DNA of 64,000 nt. It comes from Eledone cirrhosa. Its lineage: Eukaryota. Below the pieces are notes generated by a model. It did not search any database. It saw nothing but the letters and a program-made list of their open reading frames with translations, and had not been told where the DNA came from. Each line of letters begins with the position of its first letter. The first letter of the stretch is position 1. Below, in pieces: positions 4,031-61,233 of this stretch. The translations under genes and the position numbers were made by a program. The stretch spans positions 124,634 through 188,633 of the forward strand of contig CAXHJY010000565.1 in NCBI GenBank assembly GCA_964016885.1. The letters run 5' to 3'.

Positions 4031-4059
4031 ATATATATATATTCGTGTACAGTTTCCAT

Positions 4060-7224: not shown

Positions 7225-7451
7225 TTACAAAAAAAAAGAATATTACAAGAAATCCCATATTTACCAATCTACCACCTACCACCACCACCTTCCGTTTAGT
7301 CCACATATCCCACCCACCCCAACACTCACTTATAAGAGTTTAACTAAATGCCCAACCCCCTCCCCCCATTATTTGAGACCCGAGAGTATATATATGTTTG
7401 TCTGTCTGTTTCTGTCTATATATTTACCTGTCCGCCTGTCTTTATCTACCT

Positions 7452-8325: not shown

Positions 8326-8625
8326 TATATCTATATACCCGTCTGTCTGTGTGTCTGTCCGTTTCGCTCTATCTATTTACCTGTCTGTCTGTCTTTCTCT
8401 AACTATATCTATCTATCTATCTATTTGTCTGCCTGTCTGCCTGTCTGTCTTTGATAGTAGACGTCTTACACATCTGTTCTTCGATTTTGAATCATTACTT
8501 GGTTATTTGTGAGTGTATTATTTAAATTGTTTTACTATTGTTGACTCTAACCCCTCGTCTGGGACTGTAGACGTAGGGTAAATATATTTTCGCCCCTTTT
8601 GGGCTGAAAAAATATTTAATTCAAA

Positions 8626-10385: not shown

Positions 10386-10408
10386 GTGCCTCTTTCTTTA
10401 CCACCAAC

Positions 10409-13400: not shown

Positions 13401-13823
13401 AAAGATCTGTCCCAGATGCGTGCCCGACGAGGAAACCGTCGCGCACGCATTGGTGCACTGCCCGGGCGTTACCGATCTGTGGGGCTATTTCGAACAACTG
13501 CTGTCACGGGTGGGACCAATTAGGTTGACCACCGAGTCCATTGTAACGATCAAGCCGCCTCCCCCTTCAAAAATGAAGGAGATGCGGTCTTCCTCTGTGT
13601 AATAGCCATGGTAAAAGAGGTTGTGTGGTGGACGCGTCTAAAAGGGCTGAGATCGGACACCTTTCTTTCCGGCCAACAACTGGTCCTTTTCTTCCGATAC
13701 CTTTTCGGAAGAAGGATCAGGATGGGGAGAGAGGTGCTCCACTCCAGCCAGTTTTATGAAAGGTGGGTGAAAGTTGCGAGAATGGCCCGTGTGAATGGGC
13801 CTTCTCTCTACCTCAGCCTGTAG
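10409..13823 (+). pseudogene. LINE ORF2 (APE endonuclease, RT, zf-RVT) with several frameshifts and stops
   Basis: LNARGL, VYAP, GNWN (usually GDFN), SDH, KSPGLDGLP, FRPITLLN, LDQSKAFDRV, RQGCPLS, TAG stop just before AYADD, GGLG and a C-terminal C..C..H..C. Confidence 0.9.
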
Positions 13824-25847: not shown

Positions 25848-26664
25848 GTGGGAAATGAAATATCGTTTCATTTTTTCCGTTTATCGTTTTCGGTGCACCC
25901 GGCCGATTAACCCACTCGATATGCAAATTGGGCTACTCAGCCGTTAATATGCATAAGGTAAGTATATACGTTCAACAATCTGGCAGGAAGGTATACGTTG
26001 CTGACGATAGCTAACAAGCTTGAAACTAGTACAGCGTTCCTTTGTCAGTGTTGAACAAACGAGCAACGGTGGTTGCTAGACACTACGGCTTAATACGGGA
26101 TGTTTGTTTACAAACACACCGAGCATTATAATAAATGTTCGGTGAATCCATGCGTGCATATATATATGTGTGCATGTATGTATATATGTATATGCATACT
26201 ACTGTACGTCGGTATACATATATGTATGTACGTGTACATACTTATATTTAAGTAACAGCCGTACTAAGAGTGGGAAATGAAATATCGTTTCATTTTTTCC
26301 GTCTATCGTTTTCGGTGCACCCTGCCGATTAACCCACTCGATATGCAAATTGGGTTATTCAGCCGTTAATATGCATAAGGTAAGTATATACGTTCAACAA
26401 TCTGGCAGGAAAGTATACGTTGCTGACGATAGCTAACAAGCTTGAAATTAGTACAGCGTTCCTTTGTCAGTGTTGAACAAACGAGCAACGGTGGTTGCTA
26501 GACACTACGGCTTAATACGGGATGTTTGTTTACAAACACACCGAGCATTATAATAAATGTTCGGTGAATCCATACGTGCATATATATATGTGTGCATGTA
26601 TGTATATATGTATATGCATACTACTGTACGTCGGTATACATATATGTATGTACGTGTACATACT

Positions 26665-26668
<4 letters not shown>
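25848..26668 (+). mobile_element. Retrozyme-like tandem dimer, 422-bp unit, one HHR per unit
   Basis: agtgggaaatgaaatatcg repeats at ~25848 and ~26269; between (TA)n tracts; distantly similar to the 466-bp unit. Confidence 0.85.
25995..26037 (+). ncRNA. Type I hammerhead ribozyme (second copy at 26417-26459)
   Basis: acgttg CTGACGA t agct aaca agct t GAAA cta GTA cagcgt; palindromic ACTAGT. Confidence 0.85.
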
Positions 26669-26744
<76 letters not shown>

Positions 26745-28355: not shown

Positions 28356-28401
<46 letters not shown>

Positions 28402-28402
28402 T

Positions 28403-28960
28403 ATGCAAAAGTTTTATTTAAGATTGTTGGGTTACAACGAGTAAATATTTATAACTGATATAAAAGCACTAAACAGTTTCTAGAGTAGGTTTACGATATT
28501 AAACAAATGGAAACTATATTTATAAAACCATATTTATTTCGTTATATATATTTCTGGGATATCATATTAAAAATATGTTATGCCTTCCTCAGACAAAATA
28601 CAATACTTAAGCTGTTTTATAAATAATTAGTGACATACCTTGTGATAATGCAACTTCCTTTTAAAAAGTTGATTTGGTAGTGAAACTGTTATGATAGTTA
28701 TATAGAAAGAAAACGAAGATGAGAAGAAGAAGATGAAGAGATGTATGCAAATAAAAAAAAAGAAGAAGATGAAGAGATGTATGCAAAGAATAACAACGGA
28801 GCGAGATAGAGAGACAAGGAGAGAGAGAAATACATTGATGGTGAAAAAAACATAGTAGGCTGCTTTTTGACAGATGATCATCGTATATGTGAGAGGTTAA
28901 GGGAAGGGATACAGTTAAATTAGTGTATAGGAGAAAAAGAAAGAAAGATGATATGTTTAA
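28403..28960 (-). mobile_element. Solo 3' end (pLTR and tail) of the 57-64 kb PLE family; HHR at 28535-28600
   Basis: Reverse complement aligns with 59870-60338 and extends into the tail also seen at 56990-57077; tattttgt CTGAGGA...GAAA tatata TA acgaaata. Confidence 0.8.
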
Positions 28961-28972
28961 AATATATTAAAA

Positions 28973-29005
<33 letters not shown>

Positions 29006-29182
29006 AGTATATAAATATATATATATAAGTATATATATATAAGTATATAAATATATATATATAAGTATATAAATATATATATATAAGTATATAAATATAT
29101 ATATATAAGTATATAAATATATATATATAAGTATATAAATATATATATATAAGTATATAAATATATATATATAAGTATATAT

Positions 29183-29530
29183 TTTGAGTTTATGTTGGTT
29201 GTATACCAACACCTCAGTATGCAGGCTGGAGCACTCGACGAAGAGCGCAGGTTGGTTTGGTTACTCCGGAGTAGTGTAAAATAAAGTTAAATAAAAGTCA
29301 AATGATTAAAATTTAGCTTCGTTTATTACTGCTATATATATTTCAGTGACAGCCATCTTTGGCTGTGACCTCTTCAGGCAGTTTAAATTAGTATGGTATA
29401 GACAAGTACATATGTTATTTTCCAAACTGCCTGAAGAGGTCACAGCCAAAGATGGCTGTCACTGAAATATATATAGCAGTGATAAACGAAGTTAAATTTT
29501 AATCATTTGACTTTTATTTAACTTTATTTT
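29183..29530. mobile_element. Foldback with an intact HHR in each arm (29328-29382 minus, 29426-29480 plus)
   Basis: Arms 29278-29385 and 29423-29530; actgc CTGAAGA ggtcacagcca aaga tggctgtcact GAAA tatata TA gcagt. Confidence 0.85.
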
Positions 29531-29893: not shown

Positions 29894-30253
29894 AGTATAA
29901 AGAAAAAGAGATGAAATCGAAAATGCAACGGGAGTCTTATTTTTTTTTTTAAATATATATATTTATTTGGTTCCTTTACCGGTTTCGCAGTTCTTCTGCT
30001 TTTCAAAAGTAGAGTTGAGATGGAGGGTCTGTGGTTTTTCTCACATCTGAGGAACCACAGACCCTCCATCTCAACTCTACTTTTGAAAAGCAGAAGAACT
30101 GCGAAACCGGTAAAGGAACCAAATAAATATATATATTTTTTTTTAAAATAAGACTCCAGTTGCATTTTCGATTTCATCTCTTTTTCTTTATACTTTCACT
30201 CGTGTAGGACACTTCGGTTATTTTTCAATTTGTAAAAGAAATCTCACTTTCTA
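29894..30253. mobile_element. Foldback of the U3-A8 HHR family with an HHR in each arm (29974-30009 minus, 30080-30115 plus)
   Basis: Arms 29894-30048 and 30053-30253; ctt TTGAAAA gcagaagaactgc GAAA ccgg TA aag. Confidence 0.85.
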
Positions 30254-30451: not shown

Positions 30452-33248
30452 ATTGGAATAAATGCTCTGAAATAGCGATATATATGTGAATATAGACATA
30501 GAATATTCGAAAATATTCTGTATGTTTATAATAAACATTTTGAAGACCTAATCGCTATAGAATAGAATACGTCACGTATTACAATTAGATTCTCGATAAA
30601 AGCAAGGGAAGTAATCTACGCGTTTCATTCTTGTTAGAAATCTTCAGGACTACATATCCAGTGCTTTTATCGAGAATGACACAGCTAGAGACTTATAGAA
30701 TACTTAGCTGTGTACAGGAACTGGTTTGAAAGAGCGGTTGCCGGTCCGGCAGAAATTAGGAATTGGAATAAATGCTCTGAAATAGCGATATATATGTGAA
30801 TATAGACATAGAATATTCGAAAATATTCTGTATGTTTATAATAAACATTTTGAAGACCTAATCGCTATAGAATAGAATACGTCACGTATTACAATTAGAT
30901 TCTCGATAAAGGCAAGGGAAGTAATCTACGCGTTTCATTCTTGTTAGAAATCTTCAGGACTACATATCCAGTGCTTTTATCGAGAATGACACAGCTAGAG
31001 ACTTATAGAATACTTAGCTGTGTACAGGAACTGGTTTGAAAGAGCGGTTGCCGGTCCGGCAGAAATTAGAAATTGGAATAAATGCTCTGAAATAGCGATA
31101 TATATGTGAATATAGACATAGAATATTCGAAAATATTCTGTATGTTTATAATAAACATTTTGAAGACCTAATCGCTATAGAATAGAATACGTCACGTATT
31201 ACAATTAGATTCTCGATAAAAGCAAGGGAAGTAATCTACGCGTTTCATTCTTGTTAGAAATCTTCAGGACTACATATCCAGTGCTTTTATCGAGAATGAC
31301 ACAGCTAGAGACTTATAGAATACTTAGCTGTGTACAGGAACTGGTTTGAAAGAGCGGTTGCCGGTCCGGCAGAAATTAGAAATTGGAATAAATGCTCTGA
31401 AATAGCGATATATATGTGAATATAGACATAGAATATTCGAAAATATTCTGTATGTTTATAATAAACATTTTGAAGACCTAATCGCTATAGAATAGAATAC
31501 GTCACGTATTACAATTAGATTCTCGATAAAAGCAAGGGAAGTAATCTACGCGTTTCATTCTTGTTAGAAATCTTCAGGACTACATATCCAGTGCTTTTAT
31601 CGAGAATGACACAGCTAGAGACTATTCTATAGCGATTAGGTCTTCAAAATGTTTATTATAAACATACAGAATATTTTCGAATATTCTATGTCTATATTCA
31701 CATATATATCGCTATTTCAGAGCATTTATTCCAATTTCTAATTTCTGCCGGACCGGCAACCGCTCTTTCAAACCAGTTCCTGTACACAGCTAAGTATTCT
31801 ATAAGTCTCTAGCTGTGTCATTCTCGATAAAAGCACTGGATATGTAGTCCTGAAGATTTCTAACAAGAATGAAACGCGTAGATTACTTCCCTTGCTTTTA
31901 TCGAGAATCTAATTGTAATACGTGACGTATTCTATTCTATAGCGATTAGGTCTTCAAAATGTTTATTATAAACATACAGAATATTTTCGAATATTCTATG
32001 TCTATATTCACATATATATCGCTATTTCAGAGCATTTATTCCAATTTCTAATTTCTGCCGGACCGGCAACCGCTCTTTCAAACCAGTTCCTGTACACAGC
32101 TAAGTATTCTATAAGTCTCTAGCTGTGTCATTCTCGATAAAAGCACTGGATATGTAGTCCTGAAGATTTCTAACAAGAATGAAACGCGTAGATTACTTCC
32201 CTTGCTTTTATCGAGAATCTAATTGTAATACGTGACGTATTCTATTCTATAGCGATTAGGTCTTCAAAATGTTTATTATAAACATACAGAATATTTTCGA
32301 ATATTCTATGTCTATATTCACATATATATCGCTATTTCAGAGCATTTATTCCAATTTCTAATTTCTGCCGGACCGGCAACCGCTCTTTCAAACCAGTTCC
32401 TGTACACAGCTAAGTATTCTATAAGTCTCTAGCTGTGTCATTCTCGATAAAAGCACTGGATATGTAGTCCTGAAGATTTCTAACAAGAATGAAACGCGTA
32501 GATTACTTCCCTTGCTTTTATCGAGAATCTAATTGTAATACGTGACGTATTCTATTCTGTAGCGATTAGGTCTTCAAAATGTTTATTATAAACATACAGA
32601 ATATTTTCGAATATTCTATGTCTATATTCACATATATATCGCTATTTCAGAGCATTTATTCCAATTTCTAATTTCTGCCGGACCGGCAACCGCTCTTTCA
32701 AACCAGTTCCTGTACACAGCTAAGTATTCTATAAGTCTCTAGCTGTGTCATTCTCGATAAAAGCACTGGATATGTAGTCCTGAAGATTTCTAACAAGAAT
32801 GAAACGCGTAGATTACTTCCCTTGCTTTTATCGAGAATCTAATTGTAATACGTGACGTATTCTATTCTATAGCGATTAGGTCTTCAAAATGTTTATTATA
32901 AACATACAGAATATTTTCGAATATTCTATGTCTATATTCACATATATATCGCTATTTCAGAGCATTTATTCCAATTTCTAATTTCTGCCGGACCGGCAAC
33001 CGCTCTTTCAAACCAGTTCCTGTACACAGCTAAGTATTCTATAAGTCTCTAGCTGTGTCATTCTCGATAAAAGCACTGGATATGTAGTCCTGAAGATTTC
33101 TAACAAGAATGAAACGCGTAGATTACTTCCCTTGCTTTTATCGAGAATCTAATTGTAATACGTGACGTATTCTATTCTATAGCGATTAGGTCTTCAAAAT
33201 GTTTATTATAAACATACAGAATATTTTCGAATATTCTATGTCTATATT

Positions 33249-33259
<11 letters not shown>
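30452..33259. mobile_element. Retrozyme-like array, 310-bp unit: ~3.8 units (HHR on minus) then ~5.3 inverted units (HHR on plus)
   Basis: Period 310 (30453, 30763, 31073, 31383); inversion junction at 31622-31623; nine HHRs; (TA)n flanks. Confidence 0.92.
31844..31886 (+). ncRNA. Type I hammerhead of the 310-bp unit (plus copies also at 32154, 32464, 32774, 33084; minus copies at 30611, 30921, 31231, 31541)
   Basis: gtagtc CTGAAGA t ttct aaca agaa t GAAA cgc GTA gattac; palindromic ACGCGT; helix I extended by a perfect 16-bp stem attctcgataaaagca/tgcttttatcgagaat. Confidence 0.9.
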
Positions 33260-33304
<45 letters not shown>

Positions 33305-33354
33305 TATATAAATATATATATATAAGTATATATATATAAATATATATATATAAG

Positions 33355-33386
<32 letters not shown>

Positions 33387-33452
33387 AATATTTATATATA
33401 TATATATATAAATATATCTATATATATAAGTATATAAATATATATATATAAG

Positions 33453-33484
<32 letters not shown>

Positions 33485-33589
33485 ACAATATAAATATATA
33501 TATATATATATATAACAATATAAATATATATATATATAAGTATATAAATATATATATATATATATATATAAGTATATAAATATATATAT

Positions 33590-36500
33590 ATAAAAACAAA
33601 TAACGAAACGAAATTAAATTTCGTTTCGTTTGTAACTCACTTTTGTATGACTGACGCTTAAACAATTAAATTAAAAATGTACATCCACATATGTATACTG
33701 AAATACTAGTATGCATATGAATACACACACGTGTACATATGTAGATGTACCGAGTTTTTCACTGGACACTTTACTGTGAGTGTCCAGCTATTCTGTATGT
33801 AAACACACAGACAAACCGGTTTTTAGAGTCATACTGGTTTTCGAGGAAACACCTTTCCTCTATTCTCCAGAAAGCCAGACAAGGAATATTGGACTAGTTT
33901 CGATGTTGTTACATCTCATCAGCAATATTTACCTATCTTCCGGCCTTTCTAGAGAATCGTAAAAGCACATATCGTTATATGCTTTTTCTATGAAAATTAG
34001 TAGTGGGCAGACTAATTTGCATAGAGCGTGAGTACGTACCGGTTCAGCGGAGACGATAAAAACAAATAACGAAACGAAATTAAATTTCGTTTCGTTTGTA
34101 ACTCACTTTTGTATGACTGACGCTTAAACAATTAAATTAAAAATGTACATCCACATATGTATACTGAAATACTAGTATGCATATGAATACACACACGTGT
34201 ACATATGTAGATGTACCGAGTTTTTCACTGGACACTTTACTGTGAGTGTCCAGCTATTCTGTATGTAAACACACAGACAAACCGGTTTTTAGAGTCATAC
34301 TGGTTTTCGAGGAAACACCTTTCCTCTATTCTCCAGAAAGCCAGACAAGGAATATTGGACTAGTTTCGATGTTGTTACATCTCATCAGCAATATTTACCT
34401 ATCTTCCGGCCTTTCTAGAGAATCGTAAAAGCACATATCGTTATATGCTTTTTCTATGAAAATTAGTAGTGGGCAGACTAATTTGCATAGAGCGTGAGTA
34501 CGTACCGGTTCAGCGGAGACGATAAAAACAAATAACGAAACGAAATTAAATTTCGTTTCGTTTGTAACTCACTTTTGTATGACTGACGCTTAAACAATTA
34601 AATTAAAAATGTACATCCACATATGTATACTGAAATACTAGTATGCATATGAATACACACACGTGTACATATGTAGATGTACCGAGTTTTTCACTGGACA
34701 CTTTACTGTGAGTGTCCAGCTATTCTGTATGTAAACACACAGACAAACCGGTTTTTAGAGTCATACTGGTTTTCGAGGAAACACCTTTCCTCTATTCTCC
34801 AGAAAGCCAGACAAGGAATATTGGACTAGTTTCGATGTTGTTACATCTCATCAGCAATATTTACCTATCTTCCGGCCTTTCTAGAGAATCGTAAAAGCAC
34901 ATATCGTTATATGCTTTTTCTATGAAAATTAGTAGTGGGCAGACTAATTTGCATAGAGCGTGAGTACGTACCGGTTCAGCGGAGACGATAAAAACAAATA
35001 ACGAAACGAAATTAAATTTCGTTTCGTTTGTAACTCACTTTTGTATGACTGACGCTTAAACAATTAAATTAAAAATGTACATCCACATATGTATACTGAA
35101 ATACTAGTATGCATATGAATACACACACGTGTACATATGTAGATGTACCGAGTTTTTCACTGGACACTTTACTGTGAGTGTCCAGCTATTCTGTATGTAA
35201 ACACACAGACAAACCGGTTTTTAGAGTCATACTGGTTTTCGAGGAAACACCTTTCCTCTATTCTCCAGAAAGCCAGACAAGGAATATTGGACTAGTTTCG
35301 ATGTTGTTACATCTCATCAGCAATATTTACCTATCTTCCGGCCTTTCTAGAGAATCGTAAAAGCACATATCGTTATATGCTTTTTCTATGAAAATTAGTA
35401 GTGGGCAGACTAATTTGCATAGAGCGTGAGTACGTACCGGTTCAGCGGAGACGATAAAAACAAATAACGAAACGAAATTAAATTTCGTTTCGTTTGTAAC
35501 TCACTTTTGTATGACTGACGCTTAAACAATTAAATTAAAAATGTACATCCACATATGTATACTGAAATACTAGTATGCATATGAATACACACACGTGTAC
35601 ATATGTAGATGTACCGAGTTTTTCACTGGACACTTTACTGTGAGTGTCCAGCTATTCTGTATGTAAACACACAGACAAACCGGTTTTTAGAGTCATACTG
35701 GTTTTCGAGGAAACACCTTTCCTCTATTCTCCAGAAAGCCAGACAAGGAATATTGGACTAGTTTCGATGTTGTTACATCTCATCAGCAATATTTACCTAT
35801 CTTCCGGCCTTTCTAGAGAATCGTAAAAGCACATATCGTTATATGCTTTTTCTATGAAAATTAGTAGTGGGCAGACTAATTTGCATAGAGCGTGAGTACG
35901 TACCGGTTCAGCGGAGACGATAAAAACAAATAACGAAACGAAATTAAATTTCGTTTCGTTTGTAACTCACTTTTGTATGACTGACGCTTAAACAATTAAA
36001 TTAAAAATGTACATCCACATATGTATACTGAAATACTAGTATGCATATGAATACACACACGTGTACATATGTAGATGTACCGAGTTTTTCACTGGACACT
36101 TTACTGTGAGTGTCCAGCTATTCTGTATGTAAACACACAGACAAACCGGTTTTTAGAGTCATACTGGTTTTCGAGGAAACACCTTTCCTCTATTCTCCAG
36201 AAAGCCAGACAAGGAATATTGGACTAGTTTCGATGTTGTTACATCTCATCAGCAATATTTACCTATCTTCCGGCCTTTCTAGAGAATCGTAAAAGCACAT
36301 ATCGTTATATGCTTTTTCTATGAAAATTAGTAGTGGGCAGACTAATTTGCATAGAGCGTGAGTACGTACCGGTTCAGCGGAGACGATAAAAACAAATAAC
36401 GAAACGAAATTAAATTTCGTTTCGTTTGTAACTCACTTTTGTATGACTGACGCTTAAACAATTAAATTAAAAATGTACATCCACATATGTATACTGAAAT

Positions 36501-39500
36501 ACTAGTATGCATATGAATACACACACGTGTACATATGTAGATGTACCGAGTTTTTCACTGGACACTTTACTGTGAGTGTCCAGCTATTCTGTATGTAAAC
36601 ACACAGACAAACCGGTTTTTAGAGTCATACTGGTTTTCGAGGAAACACCTTTCCTCTATTCTCCAGAAAGCCAGACAAGGAATATTGGACTAGTTTCGAT
36701 GTTGTTACATCTCATCAGCAATATTTACCTATCTTCCGGCCTTTCTAGAGAATCGTAAAAGCACATATCGTTATATGCTTTTTCTATGAAAATTAGTAGT
36801 GGGCAGACTAATTTGCATAGAGCGTGAGTACGTACCGGTTCAGCGGAGACGATAAAAACAAATAACGAAACGAAATTAAATTTCGTTTCGTTTGTAACTC
36901 ACTTTTGTATGACTGACGCTTAAACAATTAAATTAAAAATGTACATCCACATATGTATACTGAAATACTAGTATGCATATGAATACACACACGTGTACAT
37001 ATGTAGATGTACCGAGTTTTTCACTGGACACTTTACTGTGAGTGTCCAGCTATTCTGTATGTAAACACACAGACAAACCGGTTTTTAGAGTCATACTGGT
37101 TTTCGAGGAAACACCTTTCCTCTATTCTCCAGAAAGCCAGACAAGGAATATTGGACTAGTTTCGATGTTGTTACATCTCATCAGCAATATTTACCTATCT
37201 TCCGGCCTTTCTAGAGAATCGTAAAAGCACATATCGTTATATGCTTTTTCTATGAAAATTAGTAGTGGGCAGACTAATTTGCATAGAGCGTGAGTACGTA
37301 CCGGTTCAGCGGAGACGATAAAAACAAATAACGAAACGAAATTAAATTTCGTTTCGTTTGTAACTCACTTTTGTATGACTGACGCTTAAACAATTAAATT
37401 AAAAATGTACATCCACATATGTATACTGAAATACTAGTATGCATATGAATACACACACGTGTACATATGTAGATGTACCGAGTTTTTCACTGGACACTTT
37501 ACTGTGAGTGTCCAGCTATTCTGTATGTAAACACACAGACAAACCGGTTTTTAGAGTCATACTGGTTTTCGAGGAAACACCTTTCCTCTATTCTCCAGAA
37601 AGCCAGACAAGGAATATTGGACTAGTTTCGATGTTGTTACATCTCATCAGCAATATTTACCTATCTTCCGGCCTTTCTAGAGAATCGTAAAAGCACATAT
37701 CGTTATATGCTTTTTCTATGAAAATTAGTAGTGGGCAGACTAATTTGCATAGAGCGTGAGTACGTACCGGTTCAGCGGAGACGATAAAAACAAATAACGA
37801 AACGAAATTAAATTTCGTTTCGTTTGTAACTCACTTTTGTATGACTGACGCTTAAACAATTAAATTAAAAATGTGTGTTTACATACAGAATAGCTGGACA
37901 CTCACAGTAAAGTGTCCAGTGAAAAACTCGGTACATCTACATATGTACACGTGTGTGTATTCATATGCATACTAGTATTTCAGTATACATATGTGGATGT
38001 ACATTTTTAATTTAATTGTTTAAGCGTCAGTCATACAAAAGTGAGTTACAAACGAAACGAAATTTAATTTCGTTTCGTTATTTGTTTTTATCGTCTCCGC
38101 TGAACCGGTACGTACTCACGCTCTATGCAAATTAGTCTGCCCACTACTAATTTTCATAGAAAAAGCATATAACGATATGTGCTTTTACGATTCTCTAGAA
38201 AGGCCGGAAGATAGGTAAATATTGCTGATGAGATGTAACAACATCGAAACTAGTCCAATATTCCTTGTCTGGCTTTCTGGAGAATAGAGGAAAGGTGTTT
38301 CCTCGAAAACCAGTATGACTCTAAAAACCGGTTTGTCTGTGTGTTTACATACAGAATAGCTGGACACTCACAGTAAAGTGTCCAGTGAAAAACTCGGTAC
38401 ATCTACATATGTACACGTGTGTGTATTCATATGCATACTAGTATTTCAGTATACATATGTGGATGTACATTTTTAATTTAATTGTTTAAGCGTCAGTCAT
38501 ACAAAAGTGAGTTACAAACGAAACGAAATTTAATTTCGTTTCGTTATTTGTTTTTATCGTCTCCGCTGAACCGGTACGTACTCACGCTCTATGCAAATTA
38601 GTCTGCCCACTACTAATTTTCATAGAAAAAGCATATAACGATATGTGCTTTTACGATTCTCTAGAAAGGCCGGAAGATAGGTAAATATTGCTGATGAGAT
38701 GTAACAACATCGAAACTAGTCCAATATTCCTTGTCTGGCTTTCTGGAGAATAGAGGAAAGGTGTTTCCTCGAAAACCAGTATGACTCTAAAAACCGGTTT
38801 GTCTGTGTGTTTACATACAGAATAGCTGGACACTCACAGTAAAGTGTCCAGTGAAAAACTCGGTACATCTACATATGTACACGTGTGTGTATTCATATGC
38901 ATACTAGTATTTCAGTATACATATGTGGATGTACATTTTTAATTTAATTGTTTAAGCGTCAGTCATACAAAAGTGAGTTACAAACGAAACGAAATTTAAT
39001 TTCGTTTCGTTATTTGTTTTTATCGTCTCCGCTGAACCGGTACGTACTCACGCTCTATGCAAATTAGTCTGCCCACTACTAATTTTCATAGAAAAAGCAT
39101 ATAACGATATGTGCTTTTACGATTCTCTAGAAAGGCCGGAAGATAGGTAAATATTGCTGATGAGATGTAACAACATCGAAACTAGTCCAATATTCCTTGT
39201 CTGGCTTTCTGGAGAATAGAGGAAAGGTGTTTCCTCGAAAACCAGTATGACTCTAAAAACCGGTTTGTCTGTGTGTTTACATACAGAATAGCTGGACACT
39301 CACAGTAAAGTGTCCAGTGAAAAACTCGGTACATCTACATATGTACACGTGTGTGTATTCATATGCATACTAGTATTTCAGTATACATATGTGGATGTAC
39401 ATTTTTAATTTAATTGTTTAAGCGTCAGTCATACAAAAGTGAGTTACAAACGAAACGAAATTTAATTTCGTTTCGTTATTTGTTTTTATCGTCTCCGCTG

Positions 39501-41295
39501 AACCGGTACGTACTCACGCTCTATGCAAATTAGTCTGCCCACTACTAATTTTCATAGAAAAAGCATATAACGATATGTGCTTTTACGATTCTCTAGAAAG
39601 GCCGGAAGATAGGTAAATATTGCTGATGAGATGTAACAACATCGAAACTAGTCCAATATTCCTTGTCTGGCTTTCTGGAGAATAGAGGAAAGGTGTTTCC
39701 TCGAAAACCAGTATGACTCTAAAAACCGGTTTGTCTGTGTGTTTACATACAGAATAGCTGGACACTCACAGTAAAGTGTCCAGTGAAAAACTCGGTACAT
39801 CTACATATGTACACGTGTGTGTATTCATATGCATACTAGTATTTCAGTATACATATGTGGATGTACATTTTTAATTTAATTGTTTAAGCGTCAGTCATAC
39901 AAAAGTGAGTTACAAACGAAACGAAATTTAATTTCGTTTCGTTATTTGTTTTTATCGTCTCCGCTGAACCGGTACGTACTCACGCTCTATGCAAATTAGT
40001 CTGCCCACTACTAATTTTCATAGAAAAAGCATATAACGATATGTGCTTTTACGATTCTCTAGAAAGGCCGGAAGATAGGTAAATATTGCTGATGAGATGT
40101 AACAACATCGAAACTAGTCCAATATTCCTTGTCTGGCTTTCTGGAGAATAGAGGAAAGGTGTTTCCTCGAAAACCAGTATGACTCTAAAAACCGGTTTGT
40201 CTGTGTGTTTACATACAGAATAGCTGGACACTCACAGTAAAGTGTCCAGTGAAAAACTCGGTACATCTACATATGTACACGTGTGTGTATTCATATGCAT
40301 ACTAGTATTTCAGTATACATATGTGGATGTACATTTTTAATTTAATTGTTTAAGCGTCAGTCATACAAAAGTGAGTTACAAACGAAACGAAATTTAATTT
40401 CGTTTCGTTATTTGTTTTTATCGTCTCCGCTGAACCGGTACGTACTCACGCTCTATGCAAATTAGTCTGCCCACTACTAATTTTCATAGAAAAAGCATAT
40501 AACGATATGTGCTTTTACGATTCTCTAGAAAGGCCGGAAGATAGGTAAATATTGCTGATGAGATGTAACAACATCGAAACTAGTCCAATATTCCTTGTCT
40601 GGCTTTCTGGAGAATAGAGGAAAGGTGTTTCCTCGAAAACCAGTATGACTCTAAAAACCGGTTTGTCTGTGTGTTTACATACAGAATAGCTGGACACTCA
40701 CAGTAAAGTGTCCAGTGAAAAACTCGGTACATCTACATATGTACACGTGTGTGTATTCATATGCATACTAGTATTTCAGTATACATATGTGGATGTACAT
40801 TTTTAATTTAATTGTTTAAGCGTCAGTCATACAAAAGTGAGTTACAAACGAAACGAAATTTAATTTCGTTTCGTTATTTGTTTTTATCGTCTCCGCTGAA
40901 CCGGTACGTACTCACGCTCTATGCAAATTAGTCTGCCCACTACTAATTTTCATAGAAAAAGCATATAACGATATGTGCTTTTACGATTCTCTAGAAAGGC
41001 CGGAAGATAGGTAAATATTGCTGATGAGATGTAACAACATCGAAACTAGTCCAATATTCCTTGTCTGGCTTTCTGGAGAATAGAGGAAAGGTGTTTCCTC
41101 GAAAACCAGTATGACTCTAAAAACCGGTTTGTCTGTGTGTTTACATACAGAATAGCTGGACACTCACAGTAAAGTGTCCAGTGAAAAACTCGGTACATCT
41201 ACATATGTACACGTGTGTGTATTCATATGCATACTAGTATTTCAGTATACATATGTGGATGTACATTTTTAATTTAATTGTTTTTTAATTTAATT
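33590..41295. mobile_element. Retrozyme-like array, 466-bp unit: ~9.2 units (HHR on minus) then ~7.3 inverted units (HHR on plus)
   Basis: Period 466 (the ORF track repeats 9 times on plus and 7 on minus); junction TGT at 37872-37874; 16 HHRs; (TA)n flanks. Confidence 0.93.
38218..38262 (+). ncRNA. Type I hammerhead of the 466-bp unit (every 466 bp; first minus copy 33885-33929)
   Basis: aatattg CTGATGA gatgt aaca acatc GAAA cta GTC caatatt; canonical core, GUC site at 38255, palindromic ACTAGT. Confidence 0.93.
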
Positions 41296-42168
<873 letters not shown>

Positions 42169-42520
42169 TTAATAAGAGGAATTCGAACTTTGTCTGATTT
42201 ACTCGTTTTATTTACAATCCTTTAAAATATATAATGGTATTATAATGAAATAGTATGATAGAATATTAAATTCTAAGTGTTAATTGAACAAGTACTTTCA
42301 TGCTTTCGCAATCTTCAGGTTCATAATATGTGGTGACAGTCAAGTTTGCAAATGCAAACTTGACTGTCAATTAACACTTAGAATTTAATATTCTATCATA
42401 CTATTTCATTATAATACCATTATATATTTTAAAGGATTGTAAATAAAACGAGTAAATCAGACAAAGTTGGAATTCCTCTTATTAATATAATCTTCTATAC
42501 ACAATCATACACACCCGTGT
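42169..42520. mobile_element. Foldback element with ~118-bp arms and an HHR
   Basis: 42169-42287 is the reverse complement of 42367-42486; extra hairpin gacagtcaagtttgca-aa-tgcaaacttgactgtc. Confidence 0.85.
42285..42323 (-). ncRNA. Minimal type I hammerhead ribozyme
   Basis: Minus strand: tgaac CTGAAGA t tgc gaaa gca t GAAA gtac TT gttca; palindromic AGTACT; CUU cleavage triplet. Confidence 0.8.
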
Positions 42521-42543: not shown

Positions 42544-43180
42544 GGAAACCGTTGCACACGCATTGGTACACTGCTCGGGCGTAGCCGATCTGTGGGGCTA
42601 TGTCGAACAACTGCTGTCAAGGGTGGGACCGATCCGGTTGACCACCGAGTCTATTGTAATGATCAAGCCGCCTCCCCCCTTCAAAGATGAAGCAGAGGCG
42701 GTGTTTCTGTGCGTAATAGCCATGGCGAAACAGGTTGTATGGTGGACGCGTCTGAAAGGACTGAGGTCGGGCACCTTTCTCTCTGGCCAACAACTGGTCC
42801 GTTTCTTCCGATATCATTTCGGAAGAAGGATCAGGATGGAGAGAGAGGTGCTGCACCCCAGCCGTTTCTATGAAAGATGGGTGAAAGTGGCGAGAATGGC
42901 CCGTGTGAATGGGCCTTCACTCTACATCAGACTATAGGTGAGGAAGATGAAAGACCAAGGGAGCACCCCTTCTCTGTGCTCCTGAGGAGTAGGGTTGCAC
43001 ACTTTTTTCGGGGGTGTGTGCGACCCCCCAAGGCGCCTCCTCTCTATTGAGGATTTTGTTAAAAATTTTATTTTTTGTTATATCTTATTTTATTTTTATA
43101 TTTTGTTATTGCCTCCTCCTTATTGAGGACGCCTTTTTGTGTAAACTCCCCCCTTTGTACTTGTCCCACTTTTGATGCCC
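42544..43180 (+). mobile_element. 5'-truncated Tx1/L1 LINE (same family as 8451-14043)
   Basis: ETVAHALVHC...RVNGPSLYIRL* is highly similar to 13430-13823; 3' UTR ends gtggcaaataaaagaaat. Confidence 0.9.
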
Positions 43181-45816: not shown

Positions 45817-46397
45817 CGAGGTGTGTCAGAATAATTCCAGGACTGATGTCACAAAAGATTTATTTCAAACCCAAACTTCACACTAAGAGTTTTCTCCTTC
45901 AAAGTAATTCTCCTGGAGTATGTAACTGTAATTTTAGCTCTCTGCAGCGATCAAACTTTTTTCTACATAATTTTATATACTTGTCCTCTGTTTCAGGTCG
46001 TCAAGCAATGAGCACAGAGCAACGAACAAACTTGAAAACTCCGTCAGAAACACTGGGATTGCTGCAGCAAGTGTATGGAGATATGACGATGTCACGCTCC
46101 CGTGTTTTTGAGTGGTGCAAGAGGTTTAAAGAAGGACGTGAGGACGTGGAAGATGACCCCAGGAGCGGAAGGCTCTCAACAACCAGGATTGAGGTCAACG
46201 TTGAGCGCATCAGGCAGATGATGCGTAGCGAATGTCGGCTGACTGTTCGACTGATGGCAAATGAACTGGGCATGAATCGGGACAGCGTCTGGAAGATTCT
46301 CACTGAAGATTTGGACATGCGGAAAGTCTGCGCGAAGATGGTGCCAAAACTGTTGAACGGTGACCAGAAGGGTCGACGCATGCAAGTGTGCCAGGAT
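45817..46397 (+). mobile_element. Mariner DNA transposon, 5' half (transposase HTH domains), truncated at a TA tract
   Basis: TA then cgaggtgtgtca TIR-like start; from 46008 MSTEQRTN..VYGD..MSRSRVFEW.KRFKEGREDVEDDPRSGR..MRKVCAKMVPKLL; catalytic domain absent. Confidence 0.88.
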
Positions 46398-46744
46398 ATA
46401 TATATATACACATATACATATACATACATATATAAATATATGTGTACATTTTTGTACTCGATAGTATAAATTAGACTCTGTAGTTTCGCTAAGGCAACCC
46501 GCGTAGGAGATGGAGCCCCCTTATTTCAAAGGCCTACGATTATAGTATCATGTGACATGTGGAATACGGAACACCAGGACTTGATGTACTTCTGTAGAGA
46601 GTGTGCATTGTAAAGTAGAGAGAACTAACTACCTTAATCTAATCATGTTAGCAATTTTGTTCGGTAAATCAACTGTGTACATCGGCATCTTGTGCGCCTC
46701 TCTCCCTCCCTTTTTTCCACAATCCACCTCTCCCTCATCCCCCC

Positions 46745-48571: not shown

Positions 48572-50566
48572 CTACATCTAAGGCGGGTAAAATTCCCGAG
48601 ATCCATGGACGAGTTCTCTCCAGCGGTCTCTGTCCCTCATTATCGCTGCCATATCCTGCATCTCCAACAGACCAGTGTCTGTCCTTAGGGTATCAACATA
48701 TGTTAACCTTGGTCTTCCTCTTCTAGTGTATCCATGTAGGGGCTCCCAAAGGAGCACTGAGTGCAATGTCAACTCTGGATGTCGGTGAGCATGTCCAGCC
48801 AACCTCAGTCTCCTCTGTGTCACTTTTGAGCTGACTTCTTGGATGCTCCCATACAGCTCTGAGTTTTTCATCCTCAGTGTATACAGATTAATGTTCAGAG
48901 CCATCCTCAGCATTCTCGTGTAGCACCCATCCACCATCTGAGTGAGTTTCTTGGTCAGTGTCCAAGTCTCAGACCCATACAGCAACACAGACTCCACTAC
49001 AGCAATGAAGGTCCGACTTCCACACCGATCTCAAGCTGTGGCACGCCGCCCAGGCCTTGCTCTTCCTCTCAACCACATCATCTTCCGTATTCCCAATCTT
49101 TGCTCCCAAATACAGGAAGTCCTCAACCAATTCCAGCGGCTTCCCGCCTACATTAGTGATCCCCTCTGGCTTCTCAACATTCTCTACCAGATATTTTGTT
49201 TTAGTCTCATTCATTCTCAGCCGCACACTCATCGACACAGTCTCAACCTCCCGCATCAAATCCTCTGCCTCCTTCACTGTATTTGTCACCAAAACTATGT
49301 CGTCGGCAAATTCAGCATCCGATACCTTTTTCGCCCTAACTCTCCTGCTCTGAGCCGGTGCTACAGTAAAGCCAGAGTCCTGGTGTTTCTCCAGTGCAAG
49401 GCGCATACAATAGTCCACTACGATGATAAAAAGGTAGGGAGCCAATGTATCTCCCTGGAGCACTCCAGCAAGTATCTCAAAGAACTCTGTCATCCCATCA
49501 GGTGTAATGACTTGGGCTTTGGTGTTGGTGTAGAGCAGTGATATCAGGTCCACTATCCTCTTGGGGATTCCATAAGCCTGTAAGATCTTCATCAGGCAGT
49601 AACGGTCCACAGAATCAAAGGCCTTCCTAAAGTCAATGAAAACCATGACCGCAGGAAGGCACTTTGCTCTAGCTCCCTCTAATATCCTCCTCAGCATCAG
49701 GATGTGACTGGTGGTTGATCTACCCTCTCTGAAGCCGTTCTGGTTGTCCCTGAGCTTCTTTTCCATCTCAGGCTGGATCCTGTTAAGAATCATCCTGTTG
49801 AGGGTCTTTGCCACAAGTGACGTCAGTGAGATCCCCCGGTAGTTGTTGGTGTTAGAGAGATCTCCCTTCTTTGGCACTGGGACGATGTTACTGATCCTCC
49901 ACTGATTCGGGGCAACTCCTTTCTCCAGTGCCCCGTTACAGAACCCCAGGATGATATCATCAAAATCACACCTCTTCATCACCTCTGATGACACTCCATC
50001 TTCTCCATGAGCCTTGCCCTCCTTGATCTTCTTCTTGGCTCTCTGAAGCTCCTCACTGGTGAAGGGCTCTGTCTCAACATCCAGTTCCTCAAACAGCCGC
50101 CTGATCTCCCAGTGCTCTGGGCTGTGGAGGGTGGCTCTCCTAGTAGGGTCCTAAAATGGTCTAGCCATTTCCTCTTCCTATCCTCGGGCCCCGTTCCCTG
50201 GATCTGACTCGAACACCTTCTCTTCCTCCCTGTGATCTCGTTGATTATCATCCAGCTCTCCTTACATCCAGATCTGTCAACCGCTCTCTCCACACTTCTG
50301 ATCTTCTCTATCAGTGCCTCCTCTCTGACCTCAGTGTAAGCGGTACAGAGCTCTTCCCTCATCACCTCCACAGTCTCCATCCTCACCTCCGTAGGATCAG
50401 AATAGAATTGGTCCCTGGCAGCTTTCAGGTGTTCTCTGGCTGCACACACTTTTGGGTCTGCAGAGCTGACGTGCTTCCCTTTGTTCTTTTTCCTCGGCAC
50501 CAGGGTTTCACTTGCTTCCGCCACTGCATTGGTGAAGTGCCCGTACCTCCTCGTCACACTCTCCTC
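48572..50566 (-). mobile_element. 5'-truncated, frameshifted RTE/RTEX-like LINE in (TA)n
   Basis: PVPKKGDL, NYRGISL, NQNGFR, FIDFRKAFD, GVLQGDTLAPYLF, FADD and LLYGSETW across ORFs 49979-50557, 48969-49994 and 48578-48997; almost no 3' UTR. Confidence 0.88.
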
Positions 50567-51750
<1,184 letters not shown>

Positions 51751-51752
<2 letters not shown>

Positions 51753-52031
51753 TAAACCGACGGTAGTCGGTTTAGTTATAGTAATATTGTTGTCTTAGTG
51801 ATTTCGTTGGCAATCGTCTCTTTACAGCATTATTAGAATGTCTTCCGATTATCAAAATCACATGAAAGTTATATGAGCATGGAGAGTAAATCATTGCACA
51901 TCTCTTAAGCTAAAAATCTCGAAATTTCGTTCAGCACAAAAAAAGTTATGATCAAAGTTTGCTGAAAAAAACTGTGTTCAAGTGAGTAAGTGAGTGAGTA
52001 AGGGTGACGCTCTGTTATATATATTTATATT

Positions 52032-52064
<33 letters not shown>

Positions 52065-52156
52065 ATATTTATATATTTATATTTATATATATATATATTA
52101 TATTTATATATATATATATTTATATATATATATTTATATATATATATCTATATATT

Positions 52157-52194
<38 letters not shown>

Positions 52195-52228
52195 TATATA
52201 TATTTATATATATATTTATATATATATT

Positions 52229-52259
<31 letters not shown>

Positions 52260-52260
52260 T

Positions 52261-52355
<95 letters not shown>

Positions 52356-52960
52356 ATTTATATATATATATATTTATATATATATATATGTTTATTATAT
52401 ATATTTATATATATATATATGTTTATATATATTTATATATATATATATGTTTATATATATTTATATATCCTAAACCGACGGTAGTCGGTTTAGTCCTAAA
52501 CCGACGGTAGTCGGTTTAGTAATATTGTTGTCTTAGTGATTTCGTTGGCAATCGTCTCTTTTACAGCATTATTAGAATGTCTTCCGATTATCAAAATCAC
52601 ATGAAAGTTATATGAGCATGGAGAGTAAATCATTGCACATCTCTTAAGCTAAAAATCTCGAAATTTCGTTCAGCACAAAAAAAGTTATGATCAAAGTTTG
52701 CTGAATATAGTAATATTGTTGTCTTAGTGATTTCGTTGGCAATCGTCTCTTTACAGCATTATTAGAATGTCTTCCGATTATCAAAATCACATGAAAGTTA
52801 TATGAGCATGGAGAGTAAATCATTGCACATCTCTTAAGCTAAAAATCTCGAAATTTCGTTCAGCACAAAAAAAGTTATGATCAAAGTTTGCTGAAAAAAA
52901 CTGTGTTCAAGTGAGTAAGTGAGTGAGTAAGGGTGACGCTCTGTTATATATATTTATATT

Positions 52961-52993
<33 letters not shown>

Positions 52994-53086
52994 ATATTTA
53001 TATATTTATATTTATATATATATATATTTATATTTATATATATATATATTTATATATATATATTTATATATATATATCTATATATT

Positions 53087-53124
<38 letters not shown>

Positions 53125-53158
53125 TATATATATTTATATATATATTTATATATATATT

Positions 53159-53189
<31 letters not shown>

Positions 53190-53190
53190 T

Positions 53191-53259
<69 letters not shown>

Positions 53260-53730
53260 ATATATTTATAATATATTATATTTATATATATATATATTTA
53301 TATATATATATATGTTTATTATATATATTTATATATATATATATGTTTATATATATTTATATATATATATATGTTTATATATATTTATATATCCTAAACC
53401 GACGGTAGTCGGTTTAGTCCTAAACCGACGGTAGTCGGTTTATCCTAAACCGACGGTAGTCGGTTTAGTCCTAAACCGACGGTAGTCGGTTTAGTAATAT
53501 TGTTGTCTTAGTGATTTCGTTGGCAATCGTCTCTTTTACAGCATTATTAGAATGTCTTCCGATTATCAAAATCACATGAAAGTTATATGAGCATGGAGAG
53601 TAAATCATTGCACATCTCTTAAGCTAAAAATCTCGAAATTTCGTTCAGCACAAAAAAAGTTATGATCAAAGTTTGCTGAAAAAAACTGTGTTCAAGTGAG
53701 TAAGTGAGTGAGTAAGGGTGACGCTCTGTG
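51751..53730 (-). mobile_element. Tandemly amplified terminus of a probable rolling-circle (Helentron/HINE-like) element
   Basis: A ~235-bp block repeats four times (51780, 52520, 52709, 53494) with a (GTGA)n core; terminal hairpin ctaaaccgac-ggta-gtcggtttag present in 1, 2 and 4 tandem copies. Family assignment is inference. Confidence 0.5.
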
Positions 53731-56895: not shown

Positions 56896-56991
<96 letters not shown>

Positions 56992-57077
56992 GCAAAAGTT
57001 TTATTTAAAATTGTTGGGTTACAACGAGTAAATATTTTATAACTGATATAAAAGCACTCAACAAGTTTTGGAGTAGA

Positions 57078-58715
57078 TTGATTGCATCATCAAAATCTGA
57101 CCTGGGTAAACTTAGCAAAAACATTCTAGACAGGGTGATACAGCAAATTAAAAACTTGAATTGTTTACCTAACTTGAGCTTGTGGAAGGGAACTGGAGAG
57201 GTCGTTGAGTGGTTTAAAGAAATTAAATATAACAATAATAATAAATTTATTCAACTAGATATTGCTAACTACTATTCGTCTATTACCCCTAATCTACTAA
57301 ATAAGGCACTAAATTACGCATTCAAACATACAGACCTAACTAGCAATGAAATGCACATTATATTATCGGCAAGGGAAAACATTGATAGAATTTAATAACC
57401 AACTATGGACTAGGGCAGATAGAGATAATAATTTCGACATTACTATGGGATCATCAGACTCAGCTCAGGTAACGGACCTTGTGGGCCTATTTATATAATT
57501 AATTCGCTGCATAGGAAAATACCCGGTGTTACCGGAGGATTATATCGAGATGACATGCTTTTACTTATTGAAAATAATAACTCTGAACTAAATAGAAAAA
57601 GAAAACAAATTATACAATTTTTTAATTACCTTAATCTAAAAATAGAAATTGAGAATAACCAGTAGAATAGTCAATTTCCTAGATGTAACATTAAATCTCA
57701 ACACATGTCTTCACTATCCATTTCACAAGTTAAATGAAAACTTGAATTATGTCAGTTTTAGCTCTAATCACCCCAGATCTGTCAAAAATACTATAGTGAA
57801 CTCTGTTCAAAAACGTATCTCTAGAATCTCATCTAATAAAAATATTTTCGACGAAAAAGCCCAGTATTACAATGAAGCGTTAGCTAGAGCAGGATATAGT
57901 GATAAAATTATGTACATCGATAATAGACAAACTACCCAAAAATAACAACAATTTTAATTACGGTAACAACTTTAACAACTATAATAGAAAGCATTACAAT
58001 AATTCCAAAAACCAGAAAAGGAATAGAACTAGAAATATAATATGGTTTGCCCCCCCCCCCCTTCTCACTAAACATTAAAACCCACATCGCTAAACTATTT
58101 TTTAATGCTCTTGACAAACGCTTCCCTAGAACACATAAGTATCACTCAATTTTCAATAGACATACTATAAAATTAACATACTCGTCCACCAAAAATTTAG
58201 CACAAAATATTAATAGAATAAATAATAGGAATCTAAAACCTAGCCAAAATACCGAAAATAGCCTAAACAATATTCAAGTAAACAACTGTAACTGTAGAGA
58301 TAGATCTAAATGTCCGCTAAATAACAATTGCTTAGTTAAAAATATAATATACAACTGTAATGTTAAAACTGACTTAAATTCTTTTAATTATGTTGGTTCC
58401 ACCTCGACAGAATTTAAACTTCGCTATAATAATCACAAGAATTCTTTCACGGATCCAAATAAAAAATCTTCAACATCGCTGTCAGGGTTACTCTGGCAAC
58501 TTAAGCATGATAAAATTGGATATTCGATGGTTTGGAATATAGTCTCAAAAGGGATTCCTTTTAATTCCTCTTCTGAGACATGTGACCTCTGCGCGGAGGA
58601 GATATTCTTTATACTAAAATCTAAAAATTCCATTAATTTACGGACCAATTTATTCAGCTGCTGCAGACATAGATTGAACTCAACTTTTAAATATAAATAT
58701 AAATTTAAAATGTAG
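57078..58715 (+). pseudogene. PLE RT and GIY-YIG endonuclease, frameshifted
   Basis: Pieces 57078-57395, 57649-57945 and 58047-58715 are colinear and highly similar to the 62323-63990 ORF. Confidence 0.9.
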
Positions 58716-60230
58716 TATATTTACTTAAGATATTTAACTATTTATGAAGCTTGGCGATAAATCTTTCGATTCCTTCAATTTTTTAAAACCTTCTTCATGA
58801 GTATATAATTAATGAGATTAATTAAACTACCCTAAAATGGTGATGCTCCCAATCTATTGAATAAATTTTTAAGCTAGATAAACTTCTATAATAAATATAA
58901 GAGCATTTGTAGAACAACTGGGTATCCATAAATTTTTTTTTGAATGATTTCTGCTAAATAAGTTTTGTTGAATAATTTTGGTTTTGTTTGCTTTTGATTC
59001 TGATTGCTTCTAATGAACTTGACAATATATTGTCAAATAAATTGGAAGGGTGGTTTTCTGTGGTTGATATGCGTGGCATACTATGTTTTCTTACGTCCCT
59101 AGATACTCTGGGGAGTGATGAAAATATTCTTGGCGTTTTTAATATATTGATATCTGTTGTCTATTCTATGCTTGAACGATAATCATGTAAGTGAGGGCAA
59201 GAATATTATTATTAATATTAATGTATATTTTATGTCTATATATATATGTATGTACATATATGTATGGTGGAATCTTTTGTAACGCAATGAAGATTTTCAT
59301 GAAAAATAAGAAATTACAGAGCCGATCACGTAAATTCACATGTGTGTCTATAATTGTCAACTTGAATTTGAGATAACCTTCTCTTTTCTCTTTTTCTTTT
59401 TTCATGAAAATACATATATACTTATGTATTTCAGTATTTTTGAAGTTTTATCTCAGATTTTGATTATAAACCTAAGAATTTTTAAACTAAACATAGGGTC
59501 ATTATTTTTTCATTTTTTCACACATTATTGATATGTGTCTCATTCATGAATATTGATATTTACATTATAATACCTAATTCATTTGAATTGATAATTCAAA
59601 TGGATGAAACATAATATTTTAAATCTATCATCTTTCTGAATATATCTATTTCTTCTCCTCTTCCCTCTCCACTTGACGAGATTTATGTATCGGCTGATTT
59701 AACTGTATCTCTCCCACCTCGTATGATAGATATTACTCGATCTACCTCTTTTCTCCCACCACCTATATCTCTCTCTACCTCTCTTTATTTATTTTTACTT
59801 TTATTTTTATTTCTCTCCGTATCCTTAAGACTATAACTAAATAAATAAATAAATAAATAAATAATTACAGTACCCCCTTCCCTCCTTAATCTCTCATTTG
59901 TACGTTGATCATCTGTGCCCAAGCTGCCTATCATTTTTCACTTCCTCAATATATTTCTCTCTCCCATATCTCTTTCTCTCTCTATCTCGCTCTGTTGTTT
60001 TTCTTTACATACATCTCTTCATCTTCTTCGTCTTCCTCTCTAACTGTCCTTAGCACTATACACTTTCTTTCTTCTTCTCTTCGTCCTTAGCACTATACAC
60101 TTTCCTTCTTTTTTCTCTTCGTCTTTCTTTCTAACTGTCCTTAACATTTTCACTACCAAATCAACTTTTTAAATGGAAGTTGTAATGTTTAAGGTATGTC
60201 AAATTTATTTATAAAACGGTTTATATATTG

Positions 60231-60296
60231 TATTTTGTCTGAGGAAGGCATACCATATTTTTAATATGTTATCCCTGAAATATATATAATGAAATA
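60231..60296 (+). ncRNA. PLE pLTR type I hammerhead ribozyme
   Basis: tattttgt CTGAGGA aggcataccatatt ttt aatatgttatccct GAAA tatata TA atgaaata; palindromic ATATATAT. Confidence 0.7.
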
Positions 60297-60378
60297 AATA
60301 TGGTTTTATAAATATAGTTTCCATTTGTTTAATATCGTATATATATAATATATATATATATAATATATATAATATATA

Positions 60379-60799: not shown

Positions 60800-61233
60800 A
60801 TATTAAAATAAATGGAAAACTATATTTATAAAACCATATTTATTTCATATATATATTTCGGGATATCATATAACCAATATGCTATGCCTTCCTCAGACAA
60901 AATACAATATAAACAGTTTTATAGATAAATAGATTCGACATACCGTTATAACACCGACTTCCATTTGAAGAGGTTTAAGCTGGCAGTGAAAAAATTTTAC
61001 ACAGAGAGAAAGAAAGAGAGAAAAAAGAAAGAAAGACAGAAAACGAAGAAAAGGAAGAAAAAGAAGAAATGCATGTAACAAAATAGAGAGATGGAAAGAT
61101 AGATAAAGCGAAGAACTTCATGTAAAGAAACAGAAAGAGATATATATAGAGAGGAGAGAGGAGATAGATACATATATATATAGAAAATTAGGTAGTGGGA
61201 GGGTCATTTTGAGTAAATGTATCAATGATACAT

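Follow-up and report, generated by a model that had tools for sequence, protein, structure and literature searches.

We analyzed a 64,000-nucleotide stretch of the Eledone cirrhosa genome (assembly GCA_964016885.1, contig CAXHJY010000565.1, positions 124,634 to 188,633; hereafter the window), in which an inverted array of a 466-bp hammerhead-ribozyme unit lies between two (TA)n tracts (Table 1). Tandem Repeats Finder resolved two arms of 9.2 and 7.3 copies with a period of 466 and 100% matches, and a script comparing all units of both arms counted zero mismatches, in agreement with a first-pass annotation that had described about 16.5 identical units at 33590..41295. The right-hand limit it had set was correct, since the last 12 nt repeat unit positions 217-228. 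The arms are divergent, share three nucleotides (tgt) at the center, and abut (TA)n at both outer ends. The unit, which has a GC content of 36%, lacks credible coding capacity, as had been proposed: the longest stop-to-stop frames in a four-unit concatemer span 57 aa (sense) and 60 aa (antisense), and the longest ATG frames 19 aa and 50 aa, respectively. The array contains no open reading frame with reverse transcriptase (RT) and GIY-YIG domains, so the element is non-autonomous, and no pair of long terminal repeats (LTRs) surrounds a unique core.

The locus is a real, young non-LTR retrozyme insertion, and a genome-wide copy search, which the first-pass annotation had called for, revealed a dispersed family. 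Sequence identity among the units suggests that the array may be active. The inversion, previously left unexplained, is the main clue to its origin because it carries a Penelope-like insertion signature.

Table 1. Features located in the window; unit positions are numbered from the ribozyme cut
Feature	Coordinates	Strand	Remarks
422-bp dimer, collinear homologue of the 466-bp unit	25848..26669	+	ends at its own site A
310-bp hammerhead retrozyme array, 3.8 + 5.3 units	30452..33259	.	same divergent A/B anatomy, same TA tract
Left (TA)n target tract	33252..33589	.	
Left arm, 9.2 units of 466-bp retrozyme	33590..37874	-	RNA-sense 3' end at site B (position 302), flush with (TA)n
Central arm junction	37872..37874	.	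3-nt microhomology, unit position 212 joined to 83
Right arm, 7.3 units of 466-bp retrozyme	37872..41283	+	RNA-sense 3' end at site A (positions 228-232)
"Tail" in first + unit	38017..38091	+	site A 38017-38021, 13-bp hairpin, site B 38091; putative pair of RT start sites
Type I hammerhead, first of 7 on +	38207..38278	+	predicted cut after C38255; palindromic helix III
12-nt repeat of unit positions 217-228, A end	41284..41295	+	possible restart during priming
Right (TA)n target tract	41296..42166	.	
Hydra-clade Penelope-like element (PLE), broken, 5'-truncated	56985..60339	+	RT and GIY-YIG pieces 57009-58715; hammerhead cut near 60288

Ribozyme, fold and dispersal of the 466-bp unit

Sixteen hammerhead cores were located by script, seven on the plus and nine on the minus strand, with a helix I of 7 bp and a helix II of 5 bp, confirming that each full unit carries a type I hammerhead. 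Predicted cuts follow C38255 and recur every 466 nt up to 41051 on the plus strand, and run from 37620 down to 33892 on the minus strand. The recommended Rfam check gave a divided answer: a search of the whole window returned nothing at gathering score, whereas Hammerhead_HH9 matched below its cut-off of 52 (38.9 bits, E 3.5e-8), with helix III short by 5 nt.

Helix III is a 6-nt palindrome, ACUAGU, of the dimer type. Hammerheads with a palindromic helix III act as dimers (PMC4209133), and, judging from its sequence, the ribozyme of the 466-bp unit should cleave as a dimer rather than as a monomer. In predicted folding, a double hammerhead between adjacent units reached -173.5 kcal/mol, 0.4 above the minimum of -173.9, and made up about 6% of the ensemble. 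The monomer folded at -158.3 kcal/mol (z -9.1; 0 of 100 shuffles equally stable), and its predicted fold contains the helix I extension and the hairpins on which the unit had been called self-complementary. Across 12 haplotypes and a 422-bp sister unit, 17 of 150 pairs covaried, compared with 3.0 +/- 1.5 in shuffles, and the ribozyme helices and dimer-ready helix III are conserved across families. An octamer at 38125 (ATGCAAAT), also found in the 422-bp unit, was considered as a small nuclear RNA (snRNA)-type promoter, of the kind reported for newt satellite 2 (cited in PMC2220036). It was rejected as a weak lead, as it sits in a conserved RNA stem and is altered in L154 and L165.

In the 3.0-Gb assembly, exact matches numbered 1,582 for a 38-nt ribozyme sequence with GUC at the cut and 2,562 for the 31-nt core with any base there. 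Exact joins of one unit end, termed B below, to TA numbered 1,952, against 0 for a control; the join was also present in short-read contigs, which derive from four runs of unspecified type. A subfamily with GUU at the cut site has arms of about 31 units (G000:C1:5738319-5752451 and C1:81847167-81861835). GUU accounts for about 76% of depth at the cut site in contigs of run X1, yet for a minority of exact assembly matches, which hints at collapsed or older arrays. Run X4 (organism B) yielded a single 495-nt contig in which a 465-nt variant unit forms a closed loop opening at position 303, beside site B; the run is of unspecified type and the contig is not evidence of a circle.

Two fixed ends, one for each arm

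We fetched 32 top-hit loci which, with the window, made a sample of 33 biased to young copies (the listing covered 150 of 308 matches, and 39 of 351 candidates were scored). RNA-sense 3' ends fell at one of two sites, A (positions 228-233) or B (296-303), about 70 nt apart and distant from the ribozyme cut, and were nearly always flush with TA. Two long arms were present at 19 of the 33 loci, each pairing one A with one B. This amounts to 19 of the 20 resolved cases, with L031 as the exception; were each end chosen freely, 19 such pairs would arise with a chance of 2e-6. A further three loci combined a B arm with an A stub of 9-14 nt, and eight were single-armed, all ending at A or B. Besides L031, the remainder comprised one locus running off a contig end and one odd copy (L036:4514-5338) that begins just after site A instead of ending there and has TA on both sides. 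In a second sample, consisting of 20 loci taken in chromosome order from the list of 38-nt matches, 15 were A+B, one was nearly so, two had one non-standard end, one was single-armed and one ran off its contig. Neither A/A nor B/B was observed among the 33 top-hit or the 20 position-ordered loci.

Central junctions displayed 0-3 nt of microhomology or a short filler, and most joined unrelated unit positions; the longer arm was A in 6 and B in 13 of the 19 two-armed loci. Target duplications of 13 bp (L044) and 16 bp (L084) were found at two non-TA sites, and none at several single-armed loci. Short repeated fillers, which resemble telomerase-style re-priming or end-joining, occur at the L034 junction, in L041, L054 and L164, and at 41284-41295 in the window.

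A+B pairing was also observed in three other families represented in the window. In the 310-bp retrozyme family it was found at 19 of 19 two-armed loci among 21 loci, and in the 422-bp sister family seven loci were A+B, one was B/B and 13 were single or unresolved, among 21. All two-ended PLE copies were A+B: 11 plus one stub, in a set of 38 loci together with the window in which many loci were too short to include both ends. The PLE in the window itself has a short inverted B arm at its left and an A end at its right. PLEs are known for inverted arms, a tail on one side only and insertion into TA (PMC8557442; PMC3846280), and in vitro the PLE tail is bounded by two internal RT starts, both target strands being cut and extended (PMC11167929). 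The arrays are therefore most likely the product of PLE machinery, and we consider it very likely that Penelope-type two-site priming made them.

The copied template and competing explanations

Among 46 full units from 12 loci, differences amounted to 5.1 within an arm, 5.4 across arms and 17.7 between loci, and both arms of a locus carried the same locus-private haplotype. The variant 334C>T had 21 exact genome matches, of which 19 make up all units of both arms of one array and two lie elsewhere, singly; no second array filled with it was present in the assembly. The variant 392G>T had 39 matches, in four loci of two or more units and three singles, and about 45 changes are common to both arms of L154. 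Mutations fixed in every unit of whole arrays indicate passage through one monomer followed by multiplication. For the 5'-junction test we used 52 of 58 segments, omitting six that were secondary or blurred. The 5' junctions of these 52 arms were uniform around the 466-bp unit (Kolmogorov-Smirnov p 0.44), as were those of 40 arms of the 310-bp family (p 0.13), with none within 5 nt of the cut in either family, and the 383 cut-site crossings (240 + 143) contained no indel. Uniform 5' junctions together with indel-free crossings suggest a template without a reachable 5' end, such as a circle or a very long RNA. The rolling reverse transcription of a 466-nt circle that had been proposed from the window is thus favored by the template data, although one locus, L034, resembles a copy of an ordered multimer. 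Periodic variants, considered as proof of multimer circles, were rejected because their periods differ between arms (L040) or span part of an arm (L061, L160).

The same Penelope-type two-site priming could instead have copied a long uncleaved linear multimer from an existing array, with circles, if any, as a by-product; we regard this as rather unlikely. By our reading, the heterogeneous unit order of L034 is common to both arms with a 3-unit offset, an order that is unobtainable from a monomer circle and looks copied from a linear multimer. PLE insertion in vitro employed mainly unprocessed RNA, with the ribozyme dispensable and no RNA-seq reads ending at the ribozyme cut (PMC11167929), eight of nine Xenopus retrozyme dimers were uncleaved (bioRxiv 10.64898/2026.07.22.740005), and a 31-unit arm exists in the GUU-site subfamily. 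By contrast, copies of linear multimers could only shrink, yet new mutations were fixed across arrays (334C>T in 19 units, 392G>T in four arrays, the changes of L154), which requires passage through a single monomer; preservation of the ribozyme helices and dimer-ready helix III across families likewise argues against an uncleaved template. A template of cleaved linear monomers, with the RT jumping in register from the 5' end of one to the 3' end of the next, would also homogenize arrays, and the repeated fillers in L034, L041, L054 and at 41284-41295 show the polymerase to be capable of re-priming. Such jumping is nonetheless very unlikely given that the cut shows no accumulation of 5' ends (none in 52 arms of the 466-bp unit, none in 40 of the 310-bp family) and that the crossings bear no scars.

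Inversion by fold-back self-priming of one cDNA, from an antisense template or at the DNA level at a later time appeared even less probable. Fold-back has been proposed for head-to-head rotifer PLE copies with palindromic junctions (PMC3846280), and near-mirror junctions occur in three loci of the 310-bp family (L075, L081 and L090). Its predictions of mirror junctions and of a second arm that is never longer both fail, however, as most junctions join unrelated positions and either arm may be the longer, and each arm has a fixed end site of its own, which is impossible for a copy of the other arm. Least credible of all is an assembly or library artefact, or an ordinary satellite expanded by unequal crossing-over. 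In its favor, the units show 100% identity, the contig that holds the window is unplaced, and among the short-read contig pieces shown none spans its exact junction; against this, the anatomy recurs at dozens of loci on large chromosomes, with their own junctions and haplotypes, in four families. The assembly artefact against which the first-pass annotation had cautioned is therefore not what these loci reveal, and as the arm ends differ, the array is not a fold-back read.

Several further observations, besides L034 and the in vitro substrate, weigh against a PLE-driven insertion copied from a circle. L160 contains duplications of 2 and 6 units, indicating that arrays also grow at the DNA level. 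The private 334C>T variant could also stem from a homogeneous source array carried by the other haplotype or by a parent, and the array that bears the variant sits on a short contig with indel errors. The position-ordered sample included one 1-nt deletion at position 2 and one arm starting at position 4, the 422-bp locus L096 is the B/B case, and the covariation derives mostly from one divergent sequence, the 422-bp sister. A run search for the 466-bp unit returned no RNA run among the listed holders. A comparison of the 466-, 422- and 310-bp units with loci from three PLE families gave, among the top matches listed, only low-complexity hits or separate inserted copies.

Taking these points together, we consider the array to be probably one insertion of a non-autonomous retrozyme by a Penelope-like, probably Hydra-clade, RT/GIY-YIG protein, usually from a circle; the circle as the usual template is, on balance, the plausible choice. 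In the proposed mechanism, a genomic array would be transcribed, adjacent ribozymes would pair via the palindromic helix III and release 466-nt monomers, and a host ligase would close them into circles which, with a single ribozyme, would be poor self-cleavers and hence persist. The protein would then make two nicks, offset by about 13-16 nt, in the two strands of a TA-rich target. Each of the resulting 3' ends would prime cDNA on the same RNA, one at site A, the other at site B; the geometry of this step is observed, and the enzyme is presumed. Each RT would go round several times, crossing the ligated cut site, and halt at a random place. As the junctions suggest, the cDNA ends would finally join by the observed microhomology or filler and template each other's second strand, producing <--B | A--> or <--A | B-->. 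Some insertions would use uncleaved multimers, and old long arrays would grow by block duplication of DNA. We tentatively raise the possibility that one Penelope-type RT dimer holds one ribozyme-made circle, its two active sites starting at two fixed places, one per nicked strand, and both rolling round. If true, this would explain retrozyme arrays as well as the partial tandems, inverted repeats and one-sided tail of the PLE itself; rolling-circle reverse transcription would be directly recorded thousands of times in the genome, and 310- and 466-nt RNAs would be minimal test substrates.

Companion elements and related systems

With 62,089 candidates, the group to which the window's PLE belongs is very large, and the element represents a candidate type of mobilizer. 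One PLE copy, L142, has a repeat-ORF-repeat structure with a 741-aa frame whose motifs (RWR, DKT, CNCRDRSKC, CDLC and CRH) fit the Hydra-clade definition of RWK-like and DKT motifs, a CxCX5C linker, CxxC and CxH, a C-terminal GIY-YIG, a hammerhead and a (TA)n target (PMC8557442). Its protein has Atlas neighbors at 0.95-0.98, with GIY-YIG/RVT_1 annotated on part of the members, and the PLE frame had no match in Pfam or in a PDB sequence search. Two named homologues from Argonauta hians show 35-42% identity, and the repeats of the genome appear cephalopod-like. Counted from the ribozyme cut of the PLE, its site A follows at 51 nt and its site B at about 140 nt, and thus a cut monomer would be copyable only if closed. 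Two more PLE families have open frames, the three sampled families measuring 741, 758 and 713 aa. The 758-aa family (L173-L175) is young and has a hammerhead about 40 nt before the frame, whose helix II was likened to that of the 310-bp unit by eye only. Further Hydra-clade PLE copies or ends lie in (TA)n at 28397-28978 and about 60800-60900. The ribozymes of the 310- and 422-bp units were detected by a relaxed hammerhead census. The 310-bp family is very young genome-wide, with a tail of only about 30 nt and arms of up to 19 units; the 422-bp family is an older sister of the 466-bp unit and has a U-U mismatch at the base of helix II.

Metazoan non-LTR retrozymes are known from coral, mussel, axolotl and newt satellite 2, and their circles have been demonstrated (PMC7229834). 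In common with these, the present family consists of tandem non-coding repeats with one type I hammerhead per unit, a GC content below 50% and a strongly self-paired monomer, and it shares a palindromic helix III as in axolotl HHR_Amex1, co-existence with PLEs and long target duplications. The two divergent arms, the fixed A/B ends and the (TA)n target were not found in the available part of PMC7229834; the 466-bp unit slightly exceeds the 150-450 bp range given there, and circles were shown there and are proposed here. Vertebrate retrozymes were proposed in 2026 as non-autonomous PLE derivatives (bioRxiv 10.64898/2026.07.22.740005). Their proposed mover is likewise PLE machinery, and the present unit falls inside their range of 51-972 bp. 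That proposal relies on co-occurrence and similarity to pseudo-LTRs (pLTRs), with arrays arising by local amplification, whereas our evidence is insertion geometry and the arrays appear to have been made in one event. We found no pLTR similarity, the best matches to the three PLE families being TA-rich low-complexity ones.

Hydra-clade PLEs share with the arrays an inverted 5'-truncated arm, a tail at one end, a (TA)n target, target duplications, two internal RT starts and a hammerhead near the ends (PMC8557442; PMC3846280; PMC11167929). They differ in that the arrays have no ORF, arms of up to about 16 (466-bp) or 19 (310-bp) units and a tail of about 70 nt instead of 30-40. The pairing of one A with one B is strict here, whereas PLE strands in vitro lacked a start-site difference (PMC11167929). 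A 2014 paper proposed circles as the templates of PLE copies longer than one unit (PMC4209133). Both the element class and the circle hypothesis have thus been published before, and the anatomy is mechanistically useful and new. The two-armed one-A-one-B geometry for retrozymes and strict A/B pairing for PLEs were not found in the literature searched, which leaves out most subscription papers, Repbase notes and supplements. In twin priming of L1, two target ends also prime on one RNA and the divergent arms are joined by microhomology, as here, but in L1 the position of the second start varies and each arm copies a different part, whereas the starts here are fixed and both arms copy the same sequence repeatedly. 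The tandem and inverted insertion mode of PLEs and the copying of retrozyme circles are stated open questions (PMC8557442; PMC7229834; PMC4209133). Base-exact start sites, a strict rule of one site per strand, small non-coding templates and co-resident open PLE frames make the circle model directly testable in vitro, and an RT capable of writing a small RNA into TA repeats as multi-kilobase tandem copies is a potential tool.

Other short inverted elements with hammerhead cores and a palindromic helix III lie beside TA tracts at 29180-29530, 29900-30250 and 42168-42485 (predicted cuts near 29335/29473, 30112 and 42290) and probably represent further retrozyme or PLE ends. Two hammerhead cores on the minus strand, at 1994 and 18656, are isolated and have long helices II or III. 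A 190-bp unit with a 26-bp palindrome repeat occurs at 51750-53730 in three nearly identical blocks, with TA tracts between them. The window also contains what we take to be RTE- and L1/Tx1-like RT frames and a mariner-like fragment (2616-4154, 7348-13528, 42545-42937, 46001-46400 and 48578-50560).

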